This document shows positions 463 through 61,895 of a stretch of DNA of 64,000 nt, piece after piece. The stretch is from positions 368 through 64,367 of the forward strand of contig JAQUKX010000005.1 in assembly GCA_028718865.1 (NCBI GenBank), given 5' to 3'. The stretch's first letter is position 1, and every line of letters starts with the position of its first letter. A model generated the notes under the pieces. It did no database searches and was not told the DNA's origin. It was given only the letters and a program-made list of their open reading frames with translations. The position numbers and the translations under genes were made by a program. The stretch comes from Patescibacteria group bacterium (GTDB lineage Bacteria > Patescibacteriota > Patescibacteriia > UBA1558 > GWA2-36-10).

Positions 463-672
463 ATAAATAATCAGACGATTGAAATAGCTACCAACTATTT
501 TTTCTGGCCCAAAAGCCAAGAAACCCTATTTTGGGGCTAAGTCTAAAAAATGAAGTGCTCTCCTTCGCCAAGGCTAGGGAGGGAACTTGGGTGGAACCAT
601 CCCAAAATTTTTGGGATCCCAAGACAAGTATGTCTTGGGTTATTTTATTTTCATCAATAAAACAATAAAAAT
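463..672 (+). promoter_or_regulatory. T-box-like riboswitch leader of thrS, with terminator hairpin 618-639 followed by a T-run to about 651
   Basis: A 210-nt leader contains GGGTGGAACC (T-box core UGGN-ACC) about 25 nt upstream of an intrinsic terminator (cccaagaca-agta-tgtcttggg plus T-run). The T-box segment cttggg can pair with the 5' terminator arm cccaag, which is the classic antiterminator arrangement. An ACC Thr codon sits in a possible specifier region (gctACCaac). Confidence 0.5.
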
Positions 673-3784: not shown

Positions 3785-5815
3785 ATGAAAAATCGTCAAA
3801 AAAAATTCCATTTGATTATATTCGGTTGTCAGATGAATCAATCTGACGCTGAAAGACTGGCTACGGTTTTAAAAAGCCTCGGCTATAGAGAAACCAACAA
3901 AGAAAATGAAGCTGATCTGATAGCAATAGTGGCTTGTTCAGTTCGCCAAGCTTCCGTTGATAGGCTATACGGGCAGTTGCGTAATTGGCAACTAGTCAAA
4001 GAAAAAAGACCATTAATTACCCTCTTGGCTGGCTGTGTTCTGGAGCGCGACCAAAAAAAACTCAAAGACAAATTTGATATTTTTATTGATATTAAAAATC
4101 TCCATAAGCTAGCTGATCAATTAAGTCGCCTAGCTCCCGAACAAAAAATAGCTCTGCCTGATTTTTTTGACATTTCCCCCAGCTATCAATCCAACTACCG
4201 AGCTTATGTGCCAATTATGACTGGTTGCAACAAATTTTGCTCTTATTGCGCTGTGCCCTACACTCGTGGCCGAGAAACTTCCCGTCCGTCTCAGGCAATA
4301 ATTGCCGAAGTCAAAAATCTCCTTGAAAAAGGTTATAAAGAAATAATACTACTAGGCCAAAACGTCAACAGCTACGGCAAAGACTTGGTCAAAAAAGGCA
4401 AAAAAGAGCTGACTTTCCCTGAGTTGCTTTTGCAAATAGACTCATTGACTGATCATTTCTGGCTCAAGTTTTTGACCAGCCATCCCTATGATATGAGCGA
4501 TGAGCTAATTGAGACTATGGCCAAAGGCAAAAACTTGAACCACTATCTTCATTTGCCTGTCCAAAGCGGCTCAAACAAAATCCTCAAAAAAATGAATAGG
4601 CATTACAGTGTTTCTCAATATACAAAACTGATCAAAAAAATCCGCCACCAAATGCCCGAGATTGCCCTTTCCACTGACATTATAGTTGGCTTTTGCTCGG
4701 AAAAAGAAAAAGATTTTCAAGCCACCATCAATCTAGCCAAGAATATAAAATTCAATCTAGCTTATATTGGCCAGTATTCTGCCCGCGCTGGTACAGTAGC
4801 TCAGCGTCTTTATCAAGACGATGTGCCCAAAAAAATCAAAAGCGCTCGCTGGCAAAAACTGAACAAAATAATTGAACAGCAATCTTTGGCTTTTAATAAA
4901 AGCTTAATTGGCCAAACAAAAGAAGTGCTGATAGATAAAAGCCAAAAACAAAACGGCCACTATATCAATTTTGGCCGTTTGGCTAATTATGTTTCTGTAG
5001 CAATCAAAACTCAAAAACCTTTGTCTGTCGGCCAATTTTATCAGGTAAAAATAAAAAGCGCTTTAGCTTGGGGATTAAATGCTGAACTTTATCAAAAACC
5101 CAAAATTGTCGTAGTCTTAGGACCAACGGCCAGTGGCAAATCTGCTCTGGCAGTCAAAATTGCCAAAGATTTTTCTGGGGAAATAATCTCCGCTGATAGC
5201 CGGCAAATTTATAAAGGCCTCAATATTGCCAGCAACAAAATCAGCCAAAGAGAAATGTCTGGCATCCCTCATTATCTCTTAGATATAGTTTATCCTAATC
5301 AAGAATACAATCTCTACAATTGGCAACAAGACACTTTCCAGGTAATAGAAAAAATATTAGCCAAGGGCAAACTACCTATAATTGCCGGTGGTACTGGCCT
5401 CTATATTTCCTCTATTTTACAAAATTATGATTTAGATCCTCAAAATCCGCGTCAACAAACTTGCCCTTATGATTTTGTAGTTTTTGGTATTTCTCCTGAA
5501 AGAAATCAGCTCTATGAAAAAATAAATAAGCGAGTAGAAAAAATGATAGCTGACGGCTCTATAGAAGAAACAAAAAAAATTTATAAAAAATACAAAAATA
5601 AAAAACTGCCGGCTTTAAGTGGTATTGGCTATAAAGAAATTATCCAATATTTAGATGGAAAAATCAGTTTAGAAAACGCTATAGCCAAAATCCAACAAAA
5701 CACTCGCCATTATGCCAAAAGGCAAATGACCTGGTTCCGCAAAATGGAAAAAGAAGGCCTAAAAATATACTGGAATCTCAAATACAGCCAAATTAAAAAA
5801 GAATTAAAAAAATAA
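3785..5815 (+). CDS. miaB-miaA: bifunctional fusion: N-terminal MiaB-like radical-SAM methylthiotransferase joined to C-terminal MiaA tRNA dimethylallyltransferase
   Basis: Residues 1 to about 430 carry an MTTase N-domain (FHLIIFGCQMNQSDAE), a radical-SAM CxxxCxxC (CNKFCSYCAVPYTRG) and a TRAM-like end. Residues from about 437 to 676 carry the MiaA P-loop and signature (VVLGPTASGKSALAV...ISADSRQIYKGLNIASNK...PHYLLDI...IIAGGTGLY) in one uninterrupted ORF. Confidence 0.85.
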   Translation: MKNRQKKFHLIIFGCQMNQSDAERLATVLKSLGYRETNKENEADLIAIVACSVRQASVDRLYGQLRNWQLVKEKRPLITLLAGCVLERDQKKLKDKFDIFIDIKNLHKLADQLSRLAPEQKIALPDFFDISPSYQSNYRAYVPIMTGCNKFCSYCAVPYTRGRETSRPSQAIIAEVKNLLEKGYKEIILLGQNVNSYGKDLVKKGKKELTFPELLLQIDSLTDHFWLKFLTSHPYDMSDELIETMAKGKNLNHYLHLPVQSGSNKILKKMNRHYSVSQYTKLIKKIRHQMPEIALSTDIIVGFCSEKEKDFQATINLAKNIKFNLAYIGQYSARAGTVAQRLYQDDVPKKIKSARWQKLNKIIEQQSLAFNKSLIGQTKEVLIDKSQKQNGHYINFGRLANYVSVAIKTQKPLSVGQFYQVKIKSALAWGLNAELYQKPKIVVVLGPTASGKSALAVKIAKDFSGEIISADSRQIYKGLNIASNKISQREMSGIPHYLLDIVYPNQEYNLYNWQQDTFQVIEKILAKGKLPIIAGGTGLYISSILQNYDLDPQNPRQQTCPYDFVVFGISPERNQLYEKINKRVEKMIADGSIEETKKIYKKYKNKKLPALSGIGYKEIIQYLDGKISLENAIAKIQQNTRHYAKRQMTWFRKMEKEGLKIYWNLKYSQIKKELKK

Positions 5816-15056: not shown

Positions 15057-15466
15057 GGGGGATGTTTTTATTCGATGCCAAATGAAATAAAGCGCCGCAA
15101 GCGGAGTTCATGATCTCCCCAAAATCATCAAAATAAGTGCAAAAAACACTTTTGCTAAAGTCAAAGAGTTGTTTACAGCTCCTAGACTAGCCCCAGTCTT
15201 GGCATAAATTTGCCTCGACCGTTTCCAGATTGATTGGCCTGAGGTCGGCTGGAAGCGCCATTTATCAGGCTAAGGATACAAGTAGTTAGGACTTGCATCT
15301 CGAAAATCAAACTAACTAGATTGTCGGTTCCGCCCAAAGGGCGGCCGCCCTTTGGGCGGTTTTGCCGGTTTTCAAGCTGATAATTGAAAAAACAAAAGCG
15401 GCTAAGCTTGTAGAAACGCTTTAGGCAATTTGTCAGACAGGGGGGCAGTACCCCTCATCTCCACCA
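15057..15466 (+). ncRNA. ssrA: tmRNA (ssrA) candidate immediately downstream of smpB
   Basis: 5' GGGGGAUG...AUUCGAUG pairs with 3' CAUCUCC-ACCA, a 7-bp acceptor with a G3:U wobble. GCA resume codon at about 15139 opens a tag ORF AKNTFAKVKELFTAPRLAPVLA-stop. Internal GC hairpins are present. The T-loop is non-canonical. Confidence 0.6.
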
Positions 15467-36904: not shown

Positions 36905-39037
36905 CTACTGCAAGGTCTCACTGAACCTCGGTATCATGCGGCTGAAATCAACAAAACCAAAAGGCGGATTGGCTTGCAAGCGGCCGTCATTGATGAAAAG
37001 CTCTGACGGCTGAAGATTAGCCGGGTCATAAAAACCACGGCAAAGTTCAAAACGACGCGCTAAAACATTACCGTTCACTGTCAAAGAATTATTAGCACAC
37101 TGGCCGGGATTATTTGAATTACAGGAAACAAAACGACCGCAAGAAGCATCGTCGGCATCATAAGGATCAAGACTGCATTGAGGCAGTCCGCCCGAACAGG
37201 TTGTACTATCTTCTGCTCCTAGAATAATAAAAGTTCCGGCTATCGTGCTAACCTCAGGGTGCACATAGACATCGCCTCTGACTACCCAAACTATAGAGGG
37301 AATCATTTTTAAATTACTTACCGCGGTTGAAGGATCGTATATAATATTTGAAGTAATGGTTAAATCCCCTTCTACTACCACTACTACCGAAGCGTTTTGC
37401 GGTAAAATAATTCCCGTTTCCCCCAATTTGATAGAAAAACCACCAGTAGTCAGGTTGCCCTGAAAATGAATGGTTTTGCCATTTGTTACTTGATTAAACT
37501 GGTCGGAAAAAGTATTAGGGTTATTATGCCTGACCACTTGAGAGCCATATTTATTGTAAGCATTTCCGCCGGATTGATAAGCTGGTGTAATCAATCCCCG
37601 ATAATCAACTGTGCCCAAAACATTCTGATATTTTCCCGACTGACTTAAATAAGAAAAAAAATCAATGGCCGGACGGCTGGGCATCTCGCCTTGATAACGG
37701 CCTTCCAAAGTACTAGAGCTGATAAAATTTCTGATGGTGCCGCCTGACTCAATCAAAAATGAAGCATTAGCACGGTTATAAGGTGGGTAATAACGAGCAA
37801 AAATATCGCCTCGGGAATAAACACTGCCATCACTTACTTCTATAAAAGGCCTGGTAGTGGTTGATATTCTTGAAGAAAATTGGAGCCAACCTAAGCTATA
37901 GTCATCATCCTGCCATTGATTATAAGCCCAGCCACACATATAAGCCCTGTCTCTGAAGCTAATCTCTCTGTTGTCAGTATCATATATCTTATAATCCACC
38001 ATCACCCCGGGTCGGCTAAAATAACTATCGCAAGACTGGCAATGGTTGAGGTTGCCCTGATAGGCGCTCGTGCCGCAAATATTGTCGTAATTTTCTATAG
38101 TACATCCGATACAGTCATATCCACCTATCACGCCACGCATATCACCAGCTTGGTATTGCAAACAAATATTGTTTTCGCCTTCACAAGCAGTGACCGAACA
38201 ATCCGCTCCGGTCTGACTACAAACAGCTGTATCAGCATTATAATAATCATACTCCAGACAATTATCACAATTATAATTGATATTAACTGCCTGACAAATG
38301 CCAAAGGCCTCTTTTTCCGCTGGCGGACAAAGCAAGTTAACACAAGAATCAACATTACCGGGACAGAAACAATTAGCTCCTCCGGTTCGACAGGCATACT
38401 GATATTGCTCATAGCAATTGAAACAGCCGTTTATTTCCGCTGGCGGACTCGCCACCGCCTCTTCTATTGGAAAACGCAAACGCCAAGCCAGTAAATCCCC
38501 AAGCGATTCTAATCCTACAATACTGGCATATTGATCAGTAGATAAAGCGTTCAAATAAGTACTGGACAAAGCAATGCCATTTGCCGGCGCATTGGTACTT
38601 CCTGGATCAGAAAAACAAATCCAGCCCAAAGTGACTGTCTGACAAGGACCAGCTATTCCACAATTGGCATCAATAGTACAAGCTGCTCCGTTGCCTTGGC
38701 AAAAACCACCGATATTTAAAGGCGTGCCAGCCCAAGCACAGCCTTGGATATGATTAGTACCGCTAACATTGACGATATTCAATCCATAATCAATATCATC
38801 ACAAGTATTGTCCAATTGACCATCGCCGTCAAAATCGTTGAAGCAATTGAGACTTATCCAGCCCAAAATATCAGACCAGACCCAGTCGCCAATCGCTATA
38901 GGAGAGTCTTCTGGCACCGGATCAGCCTGAGTGAGAACCGGATTTTTGATGGACTGATGGACAAAAAACAAAAGCAGAAGAAAAATCGCCATTATACCCA
39001 AGCGGCTATAAAAATGAAAATGAAAGTCTGATTTCAT
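36905..39037 (-). CDS. large cysteine-rich secreted protein (candidate pilus-associated adhesin)
   Basis: Signal peptide ending LTQA. More than 45 Cys, many in CxxC/CxC spacing. C-terminal region has beta-rich repeats. Confidence 0.55.
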   Translation of the reverse strand: MKSDFHFHFYSRLGIMAIFLLLLFFVHQSIKNPVLTQADPVPEDSPIAIGDWVWSDILGWISLNCFNDFDGDGQLDNTCDDIDYGLNIVNVSGTNHIQGCAWAGTPLNIGGFCQGNGAACTIDANCGIAGPCQTVTLGWICFSDPGSTNAPANGIALSSTYLNALSTDQYASIVGLESLGDLLAWRLRFPIEEAVASPPAEINGCFNCYEQYQYACRTGGANCFCPGNVDSCVNLLCPPAEKEAFGICQAVNINYNCDNCLEYDYYNADTAVCSQTGADCSVTACEGENNICLQYQAGDMRGVIGGYDCIGCTIENYDNICGTSAYQGNLNHCQSCDSYFSRPGVMVDYKIYDTDNREISFRDRAYMCGWAYNQWQDDDYSLGWLQFSSRISTTTRPFIEVSDGSVYSRGDIFARYYPPYNRANASFLIESGGTIRNFISSSTLEGRYQGEMPSRPAIDFFSYLSQSGKYQNVLGTVDYRGLITPAYQSGGNAYNKYGSQVVRHNNPNTFSDQFNQVTNGKTIHFQGNLTTGGFSIKLGETGIILPQNASVVVVVEGDLTITSNIIYDPSTAVSNLKMIPSIVWVVRGDVYVHPEVSTIAGTFIILGAEDSTTCSGGLPQCSLDPYDADDASCGRFVSCNSNNPGQCANNSLTVNGNVLARRFELCRGFYDPANLQPSELFINDGRLQANPPFGFVDFSRMIPRFSETLQ

Positions 39038-60500: not shown

Positions 60501-61895
60501 TTAAAATCTCAATTTTTTATTTAAATCGGCAATAGCGGAAAATTCTTCTATGGCCAAATGACTGGCATCGGCCTGCTGACGCTGAGCCAAAAATTCCTCA
60601 ATTGCCTGCCCTTGACCCATGCTTTTGGCGCCTAAGGACAAATAAAGCTGGTGCAAAGGACTGTTTCTCCACGCAGCAATGCCTTGGGCTTTTTTGGTAA
60701 AAGAATCTTTTTCCAATAAATTTATCTTGGCCAAAATCTTTTCTACTCTTTCCTGAGGACTCTGACCCAAGCGACGAAAAGCAGTCAAATCCAAAGAGCC
60801 TATTTCCATCACTGGCCCGGTCAAAACCGCCTTGGGCGCCGGCCGACTGACAGAACTTGCCTTGGCCAAAACATCAGCCAGCTGTTTTTTAGCCGGCATT
60901 GCTTGCGGCCGCAATACTTTTGGCAAATTTTCTTTATCATTATCGCTGACTGTTTTTTCTTGAGGTAGGGAAAAATCTTCTTTGGCGGACGCTTGGCTTT
61001 TTAAAGGCTGAAGCGGCTGCTCAAGCGCTGGGCTTGGCTCGTCTTTTTTTGTTTCTTCTTTACCAGCTTGATCTTTTTTATCAAGTTTTTCCGCTAATGC
61101 CTCTGTCTTTTTTTCCGGCCCTAAAGAATCTTGCTTTGACTCATTTGCGTCTTGAGTTTTGGCAATATCATCCGGCAAAGAAAAATTCGGCTTTTGAGTA
61201 AGGGCCAATCCGGCCAGAGCATTGTCTATTTCCGCTTGAGGAGGCTGGCTCAAATCCTCGTTTTCTTCCAAAACAATGGTTTTTAATTTCAGCTTGTCGT
61301 CTTTTATCTCAGGCGCCGTGACCGGTGCTGGCTGCCAAACTACCAAACCGCCGGTTGCCGATATTTTTTCCTTGATGCCCTTGGCCACTGACATAATAGC
61401 GTCAATGGTTTTTTCCGGCAGCAGTCGGCCATCTGACTTGACCTTTTCACTGATAAAAATTCTGGTGCTAATGGAATTTTTCCGGTTGCGCAAAAAGTTA
61501 AAAATAGCCTCAATAAATTTTTTTCTATCCTCGCCGGCTAAATTCAAATTCTGTTTTTCTATTATCTTGGCCGAAATTTTTTCCACTGAATATTTTTTGC
61601 TCTCATCTTGAGGAAGGTGTCCAGCCAAAACCTCCAAATCCTTTTTGTCTTCCGGATGAAAGTGAAAATCAGCTTTATCGCTTGATTTACCCCTAAATTT
61701 CGCGTAATTATCCTCCCGAAAGTGCTCCTCAGTTGCTGTTTTTGGCAAATCAACCCTATCTGAAGCTGCGCTTGAGGCCGGCGTTTGCTTCTTTTGATAG
61801 TATGACAAAAGGCCTTGCTCATCTTTTAGAAGCAAATTTTCTTTCCAATTGACAGCAACCGGCGCACTGATTGTCTGATTGTCTATATCTGGCAT
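60501..61895 (-). CDS. hypothetical low-complexity protein encoded with the T4SS-like genes
   Basis: 464 aa, K/E/P-rich with a more ordered C-terminal region. No TM helix. Confidence 0.4.
   Translation of the reverse strand: MPDIDNQTISAPVAVNWKENLLLKDEQGLLSYYQKKQTPASSAASDRVDLPKTATEEHFREDNYAKFRGKSSDKADFHFHPEDKKDLEVLAGHLPQDESKKYSVEKISAKIIEKQNLNLAGEDRKKFIEAIFNFLRNRKNSISTRIFISEKVKSDGRLLPEKTIDAIMSVAKGIKEKISATGGLVVWQPAPVTAPEIKDDKLKLKTIVLEENEDLSQPPQAEIDNALAGLALTQKPNFSLPDDIAKTQDANESKQDSLGPEKKTEALAEKLDKKDQAGKEETKKDEPSPALEQPLQPLKSQASAKEDFSLPQEKTVSDNDKENLPKVLRPQAMPAKKQLADVLAKASSVSRPAPKAVLTGPVMEIGSLDLTAFRRLGQSPQERVEKILAKINLLEKDSFTKKAQGIAAWRNSPLHQLYLSLGAKSMGQGQAIEEFLAQRQQADASHLAIEEFSAIADLNKKLRF

Follow-up and report, generated by a model that had tools for sequence, protein, structure and literature searches.

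The DNA analysed here (the window) is a 64-kb stretch of 64,000 nucleotides from contig JAQUKX010000005.1 of a Patescibacteria group bacterium, and our subject is a structured RNA leader near its 5' end, directly upstream of the threonyl-tRNA synthetase (ThrRS) gene thrS. The leader occupies the gap between an upstream open reading frame (ORF) of 132 aa, which ends at 432, and the thrS ORF, which begins at 673. The product of ORF 673-2427 is identified as ThrRS by its tRNA_SAD, class II core and HGTP_anticodon domains, and its nearest relatives are encoded by metagenome-assembled genomes labelled Patescibacteria, Paceibacterota, Falkowbacteria, Komeilibacteria and similar, which places the window in a bacterium of the candidate phyla radiation (CPR). 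It is 75% identical to the ThrRS of the related locus L001. The protein has no N-terminal TGS domain, yet retains the tRNA_SAD editing-domain module. L001 and several other loci combine a Patescibacteria-like ThrRS and leader with third-party annotation (TPA) titles reading 'uncultured Gammaproteobacteria' or 'Prevotellaceae', which are probably mislabels. Other proteins of the window, ThrRS aside, were matched solely on contigs of about 5 kb in the Logan assemblies of SRR22315506.

A promoter-like site lies between the upstream stop codon and the leader. It agrees with the consensus at 11 of 12 positions and was the top-scoring site of a consensus scan of the first 3 kb; the relatives L001 and L007 carry TTGACA...TATAAT at an equal distance from the first helix of the structure (P1). 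Judged from the position of this site, transcription would start at approximately 469-471, about 10 nt past the TATAAT box, so that the transcript would begin just 5' of the structure. For positions 440-672 the calculated folding energy is -62.6 kcal/mol, which corresponds to a z-score of -4.0 relative to dinucleotide shuffles. The features of the locus are as follows.

435-462, + strand: promoter-like site, TTGACT (435-440), 16-nt spacer, TATAAT (457-462)
473-476, + strand: P1 5' arm AGAC, pairing with 541-544; extendable to 471-476/541-546 with one mismatch
477-481, + strand: junction strand GAUUG, in the position of the kink-turn (K-turn) bulge strand, without tandem G-A pairs
482-487/495-500, + strand: short Stem I, a 6-bp helix AAAUAG/CUAUUU
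488-494, + strand: Stem I loop CUACCAA, a 7-nt terminal loop
490-492, + strand: specifier codon ACC (Thr), followed by the conserved purine A493
502-522, + strand: P2 variable hairpin, UUCUGGC/GCC-A-AGAA with loop CCAAAA
524-536, + strand: P3 variable hairpin, CCC(U)/(G)GGG, adjoining CUAA
537-540, + strand: junction strand CUAA, conserved across the class
541-544, + strand: P1 3' arm GUCU, partner of 473-476
545-557, + strand: A-rich linker ending AAGUG, containing a RAG motif (AAG 553-555)
558-585, + strand: Stem III (10-bp stem, 558-583) followed by AA (584-585)
586-623, + strand: antiterminator, made up of helix A1, a 7-nt bulge and helix A2
618-651, + strand: intrinsic terminator, CCCAAGACA-AGUA-UGUCUUGGG (618-639) and U-tract UUAUUUUAUUUU (640-651)
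673-2427, + strand: thrS, 584 aa, Pfam PF07973, PF00587 and PF03129

The initial annotation had read this leader as a T-box-type riboswitch in front of thrS, and its account of the 3' half holds in every part. The intrinsic terminator that it described lies at 618-639 with its U-run at 640-651; the 9-bp stem contains five G-C pairs and was recovered by the consensus scan too. The T-box-core-like box GGGTGGAACC is located at 589-598. The proposed competition is also present, as CUUGGG (586-591) is complementary to the terminator 5' arm CCCAAG (618-623) and forms with it helix A1, leaving UGGA (592-595) free within the 7-nt bulge UGGAACC (592-598). Helix A2 is a hairpin, AUCCCAAA/UUUGGGAU, at 599-617. 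Set against the conserved T-box sequence AGGGUGGNACCGCG, positions 588-601 of the window read UGGGUGGAACCAUC, which matches the core GGGUGGNACC at all ten positions and diverges in the flanks (A to U, and GCG to AUC). To follow this architecture beyond the window, a sample of 59 related leaders was collected, most of which carry the full GGGUGGAACCGCG. Stem III is present in 55 of these, with AA ahead of A1 in 45, and 39 of the 55 with a Stem III have AGUG, AGAG or AGCG ahead of it. A RAG motif in front of Stem III is a T-box feature (PMC11297988), and the end of the window linker aligns with the RF00230 consensus aaAGuG. When the 3' half (545-630) was searched alone with RF00230, positions 545-624 matched model positions 151-219 with 27 bits (E=6.6e-5), in an alignment spanning the RAG motif, Stem III, the T-box and the antiterminator.

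Such a motif could in principle be a chance T-box-like sequence beside the terminator of the upstream gene, and GGTGGNACC alone carries no significance: 0.54 occurrences are expected per window, and 41 of 100 shuffles contained at least one match. The A1/bulge/A2 shape is far more restrictive, as it was found at only one of the 11 TGGNACC sites of the 64-kb window. In addition, the promoter-like site separates the stop codon of the upstream gene (432) from the structure, and conservation of the entire 180-nt architecture, with covariation, in the 59 leaders before thrS already refutes coincidence, which we consider extremely improbable.

CCCAAG serves both as the A1 3' arm and as the terminator 5' arm, and the two folds are therefore mutually exclusive. 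With Stem III included in both, the calculated energies are -36.1 kcal/mol for the terminator and -29.9 kcal/mol for the antiterminator fold, making the terminator 6.2 kcal/mol more stable. For an RNA ending at 630, where the 3' arm of the terminator has not yet been made, the minimum-free-energy fold is the antiterminator. As modelled, the energetics of the window element are those of classic default-OFF T-box logic.

The same architecture was traced through the related leaders. Constraint folding and a minimum-energy search for the antiterminator were tried and rejected, as both chose terminator-enclosing helices; antiterminators were instead called by a shortest-architecture rule with a swapped-arm control. 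On this basis 55 of 59 leaders have the antiterminator architecture. Their A1 arms come in 34 distinct combinations, with pairs 2 and 3 being U-A in some and C-G in others. All six A1 pairs form in 61% of leaders, compared with 17% when arms are swapped, and in 53 of the 55 the 3' arm of A1 finds a second partner downstream, in a terminator-like helix.

This arrangement bears on whether the switch might act on translation, sequestering and releasing a ribosome-binding site in the manner of the actinobacterial ileS T-boxes with a short Stem I. The window element does resemble that class in having a short Stem I with the codon in its terminal loop (PMC7583486). Its alternative helix, though, is a G-C-rich hairpin directly before a U-tract, which is an intrinsic terminator, and the last position of this hairpin lies 34 nt ahead of the ATG. 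Neither 640-672 nor A1/A2 and their surroundings contain a purine run resembling a Shine-Dalgarno sequence, and most of the 55 relatives have a terminator-like hairpin and U-run downstream of the antiterminator. A translational switch is thus very unlikely.

The 5' half of the leader is organized differently. Its first 75 nt would fold as a P1-closed junction that displays ACC in the CUACCAA loop of the 6-bp Stem I hairpin. An ACC codon in the upstream half had been noted before; there are in fact two, at 490-492 and 523-525, and it is the former that lies in a conserved loop. The Patescibacteria leaders share the order P1, GAUUG, CUACCAA hairpin, one or two variable hairpins, CUAA and P1 3' arm, and both the CUACCAA loop and CUAA are found in 57 of the 59. 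GAUUG is conserved in relatives of the window that were located via ThrRS similarity, independently of the motif. The bases of the loop, C-U-ACC-A-A, follow the Y-U-NNN-R-A outline of an anticodon loop, and a purine after the specifier codon is a known T-box feature (PMC11297988). The hairpins between Stem I and CUAA are far less constrained: of 52 leaders, 43 have a hairpin in the position of P2, beginning 0-1 nt beyond Stem I and not conserved in sequence, 33 have a final hairpin that stops 0-1 nt short of CUAA, and 24 are predicted to contain two hairpins. After the P1 3' arm, 15 of 52 members (such as L214, L163 and L216) carry CAAUY, which is complementary to GAUUG; this sequence is absent from 545-553 of the window. 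A GAUUG:CAAUY pseudoknot was accordingly considered and proved insignificant, with 26 occurrences against 18.7 expected in shuffles when G-U pairs were allowed.

Covariation of the 5' domain was assessed on a MAFFT alignment of 38 class members, from which the window was excluded. The P1 and Stem I cells of this alignment are 91.7% paired (P1 86%, Stem I 97%) compared with 52% in shuffles, and all 12 pairs of the two helices show changes on both sides. The inner four P1 pairs are close to 100% paired over the 38 leaders, with 3-6 pair types each. The covariation score of 1.09, against 0.28 in shuffles, was reached by none of 500 shuffles; sliding the partners by 1-3 columns lowered pairing to 26-41% and the covariation score to at most 0.19. 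A swap control was added for P1 because the CUAA site had been picked by complementarity: real sequences form 4.0 of 5 Watson-Crick pairs, compared with 2.0 when arms are exchanged between sequences. RNAalifold recovered Stem I from the alignment and did not recover P1; support for P1 rests on the pair counts and swap controls. The invariance of GAUUG in the 38 leaders arises partly because the search pattern demanded it, and that of CUAA, which was outside the search pattern, is to be read with the members having been trimmed at a C[U/C]AA site.

From the same alignment, and thus from the leaders of other organisms, we built R1, a covariance model of the 5' domain. In the 64-kb window its top match, of 51.2 bits (E=2.7e-10), falls at 470-548, and the runner-up scores 13.5 bits. 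Among the 80 closest thrS relatives R1 matches 14, always on the sense strand and upstream of the gene. Motifs of the GGTGGAACC type occur within 450 nt upstream in 20 of these 80 loci, and a structural filter applied to 1.5 kb found a UGGA antiterminator upstream in 23, a Veillonella locus included. The proposal of a T-box-type leader is borne out by these results, since dozens of Patescibacteria carry this leader type before thrS, compensatory changes included, and its 3' half matches RF00230.

The link between codon and gene was examined with a codon-free scan of metagenome contigs (GATTG-N6-CT-NNN-AA-N{70,100}-GGGTGG-N-ACC), in which both the codon and the discriminator-pairing base were left free. 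At least 120 loci matched, and among the matches listed the N6 arms pair in 53. Within this listed set, NNN is ACC and N is A in 51 of the 53 hairpin-forming matches, and the 67 non-hairpin matches have scattered, chance-like triplets. Of the 51 ACC matches, 47 have a thrS homologue downstream in the same orientation; in the remaining four the sequence continues for only 48-1100 nt past the match, and in three of these for no more than 202 nt. Two structured non-ACC matches, L140 (CGC) and L184 (CGA), were rejected as having no T-box context. On the matches listed, the class appears to be specific to Thr. The same pattern gave 25 matches in viral contigs, all of them chance occurrences in coding sequence.

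In five loci (L123, L130, L132, L153 and L175), one or two genes for GNAT acetyltransferases of approximately 180-190 aa (Pfam Acetyltransf_3, E about 1e-20 for the two tested) lie between the T-box leader and thrS, and they appear to be co-transcribed under tRNA-Thr control. L147, L128 and L182 have unrelated small ORFs in this position.

These data also bear on regulation of the type known for E. coli thrS, in which ThrRS binds an operator in its own leader and so represses its mRNA, or by a Thr-codon leader peptide. The gene is thrS, the hairpin loop has the 7-nt shape of an anticodon loop (YU-NNN-AA), and E. coli thrS does employ tRNA mimicry (PMC9976931). The loops of the E. coli operator, however, mimic the tRNA-Thr anticodon loop (NGU) for recognition by ThrRS, whereas CUACCAA carries the codon ACC; the T-box bulge and antiterminator would furthermore have no role in an operator mechanism. 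The sole leader ORF (531-668, TTG start, 45 aa) contains two Thr residues and is not conserved, which argues against a leader-peptide attenuator. We regard either form of control as highly implausible.

The comparison with established T-boxes turned on the 5' half. RF00230 does not match the window at its gathering score of 93 bits, nor does it match 380-760 at E<=10, and an RF00230 scan, put forward earlier as a check on the leader, therefore succeeded for the isolated 3' half and failed for the full leader. The Veillonella thrS leader L061 served as a positive control; it is a bona fide RF00230 member with 106.8 bits and was the sole passer among the 80 closest thrS loci. A fold of Stem I and its specifier, the second suggested check, likewise held in part: there is no canonical Stem I or internal loop, and ACC is instead presented by a short hairpin, in its 7-nt terminal loop. 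The refuting outcome set out with the initial annotation has thus come half true. We searched for each canonical element of this region. The S-turn specifier loop, AG bulge and distal double T-loop platform are missing from 470-545, as is the AGVGA box. Neither a Stem II S-turn (AGUA/GAA) nor the F-box CGUUA occurs in 500-557, RF00230 positions 1-150 are unmatched, and no GNUGNRA box was seen on reading the window sequence. GAUUG and CUAA flank P1 as the strands of a K-turn (GA motif) might, and this reading was rejected because no tandem G-A/A-G pairs can form; position 482 also varies across the class. The second ACC (523-525, preceded by GAA) was tried as a canonical 3'-strand specifier and dropped, being absent from close relatives.

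These results leave little room for an ordinary canonical RF00230 T-box whose long Stem I has simply diverged too far to score. The 3' half does match RF00230, and the thrS leaders L002 and L038 show that a more canonical form can escape the model, as both have AGAGA, distal-loop-like sequences and a 3'-strand ACC, yet score below 93 bits. In the window, by comparison, 470-545 offers no stretch capable of forming a long Stem I, the conserved ACC sits in a terminal loop on the 5' side, and P2 and P3 differ between leaders in sequence and number. R1, for its part, gives no match to the canonical Veillonella leader. The covarying P1 and the short-hairpin architecture largely refute a diverged canonical T-box, and we assign it only a very small probability. 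The full leader is unmatched and has no canonical Stem I or specifier internal loop, and we therefore describe the element as a divergent T-box rather than a standard RF00230 member.

The similarities to canonical RF00230 members (B. subtilis tyrS and thrS, and Veillonella L061) are nevertheless extensive. The window element shares with them the RAG motif, Stem III, AA, A1, a 7-nt UGGNACC bulge, A2 and an overlapping terminator, as well as an ACC specifier followed by a purine, an aminoacyl-tRNA synthetase target gene and a default-OFF state in which the terminator is the more stable fold. Canonical leaders additionally have a long Stem I with K-turn, S-turn internal loop, AG bulge and elbow platform, and a Stem II S-turn, IIA/B pseudoknot and F-box, none of which is found in the window element. 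Its codon is instead found in a 7-nt terminal loop, at the 5' side of a multi-helix junction that P1 closes; A2 of the window element reads AUCCC.../...GGGAU where the canonical helix is GCG...CGU, and RF00230 scores only the 3' third of the element. The discriminator domain is thus that of a regular T-box, and the decoding domain is not.

The actinobacterial ileS T-boxes with an ultrashort Stem I (6UFG, 6UFM; PMC7583486, PMC11297988) offer the closest parallel for the decoding domain. Both have a truncated Stem I with no platform and a specifier carried by a short hairpin close to the 5' end, and in both cases the class is tied to one aminoacyl-tRNA synthetase gene in one phylum. The actinobacterial elements, however, keep a K-turn, a long Stem II with S-turn and a IIA/B pseudoknot, all missing from the window element, and they switch a Shine-Dalgarno sequestrator rather than a terminator. 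Gene and codon differ as well (ileS/AUC versus thrS/ACC). Sherwood et al. reportedly described in 2015 an actinobacterial class with a short Stem I that has no platform and a specifier in the apical loop. The glyQS T-boxes are compact and transcriptional and, like the window element, have neither Stem II nor pseudoknot; they differ in retaining a long Stem I, K-turn and elbow platform, and this platform gives the speed needed to act during transcription (PMC7583486). The element of the window is, by mechanism and 3'-half homology, a T-box, and it is outside both the canonical RF00230 and the actinobacterial translational classes.

Within Patescibacteria, the thrS T-boxes show at least three forms of Stem I, all of them below the RF00230 gathering score. 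The first, in L002 and L038, is long and canonical-looking. The second, in L032 (approximately 1205-1330) and L060 (approximately 1300-1420), combines a K-turn-like arrangement of C-stem, 3 nt and GA...GA (GAU-GA...GA or CUU-GA...GA) with a short stem and the loop UCACCAA or CUACCAA, and the third is the P1/GAUUG/CUAA junction of the window. L032 and L060 look intermediate between the K-turn-bearing and junction forms and, together with the long Stem I of L002 and L038, suggest a stepwise reduction within the phylum.

Taken together, the leader is very probably a Thr-tRNA-responsive transcription attenuator, that is, a T-box, controlling thrS. In the mechanism that we propose, with other T-boxes as the model, ACC in the Stem I loop would be read by the anticodon of tRNA-Thr(GGU). 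If the tRNA is uncharged, its 3' end, predicted to be 5'-UCCA-3' with a U73 discriminator, would pair with the bulge UGGA and stabilise A1/A2; CCCAAG would then be unavailable to the terminator and RNA polymerase would read into thrS. With a charged tRNA, or with none, the more stable terminator would form and transcription would stop at the U-tract, at about 640-651. The sequence UGGA predicts a U73 discriminator in tRNA-Thr, and UGGA is found in every genuine thrS T-box among the loci examined, canonical ones included.

Several observations weigh against this interpretation. Bacterial tRNA-Thr genes carry A73 approximately 4.5-fold more often than U73 (131,288 versus 28,854 of 160,271; PMC6097841), and no tRNA-Thr gene, from which the predicted U73 could be read, was found in the window or in approximately 200 loci. 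The full-length leader has no RF00230 match even at E<=10, and two A residues interrupt the U-tract UUAUUUUAUUUU. The 5' domain has no K-turn, S-turn specifier loop, double T-loop platform, Stem II S-turn, IIA/B pseudoknot or F-box, although the K-turn is held to be near-universal, the platform to be required for transcriptional T-boxes and Stem II to be essential where Stem I is truncated (PMC7583486). The same review explains that the long Stem I platform is generally required in transcriptional T-boxes for the tRNA to bind before polymerase gets to the terminator, and that T-boxes with a short or ultrashort Stem I are translational, mostly actinobacterial ileS elements that depend on Stem II; writing in 2020, its authors asked whether any T-box works without a K-turn (PMC7583486).

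A further step would be to regard these leaders as a distinct, unmodelled class of Patescibacteria T-boxes, in which the P1 junction replaces K-turn, long Stem I, Stem II and pseudoknot, and which yet acts during transcription. Capture of the tRNA without elbow contact or a Stem II 'pincer' would then consist of a codon-loop/anticodon-loop kiss and the contact with the 3' end. We judge the chances of this proposal to be evenly balanced.

Elsewhere in the window, a single ORF of 676 aa at 3785-5815 (+ strand) fuses a MiaB-like methylthiotransferase (UPF0004, Radical_SAM and TRAM domains) to MiaA (IPP transferase), which would place both steps of ms2i6A37 tRNA modification in one polypeptide. 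A transfer-messenger RNA (tmRNA) gene at 15058-15466 (+ strand; RF00023, 92 bits) has a long insertion past the tag-coding region and 47 nt in one loop where the model has 18. Two large ORFs, at 36905-39037 (- strand, 710 aa) and 60501-61895 (- strand, 464 aa), have no Pfam match; the latter clusters with PrgI-like, TraC-like and TraG/VirB4-like genes, a grouping suggestive of type IV secretion or a conjugation-like system.

In searching the literature for T-boxes in Patescibacteria, the CPR or Parcubacteria we found no report, although the full-text search excluded subscription papers and its outcome is no proof of novelty. The T-box database TBDB draws its class I from Rfam-type models and ran its class II model in Actinobacteria only (PMC7778990); by this search design, junction-type Patescibacteria leaders would be missed. 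As both Rfam and the Rfam-reliant TBDB pass over such leaders, riboswitch censuses underestimate the regulatory RNA of the CPR. T-boxes are a model system for RNA-RNA recognition of tRNA, and a natural, widespread, covarying and terminator-controlled class that has no platform, K-turn or Stem II would make the requirements set out in reviews directly testable. At approximately 150 nt, the element would also be a very small tRNA-sensing module for engineering. For the organisms themselves, the finding would mean that ultra-reduced CPR genomes, which rely on imported amino acids, monitor the charging of tRNA-Thr to set the level of ThrRS.

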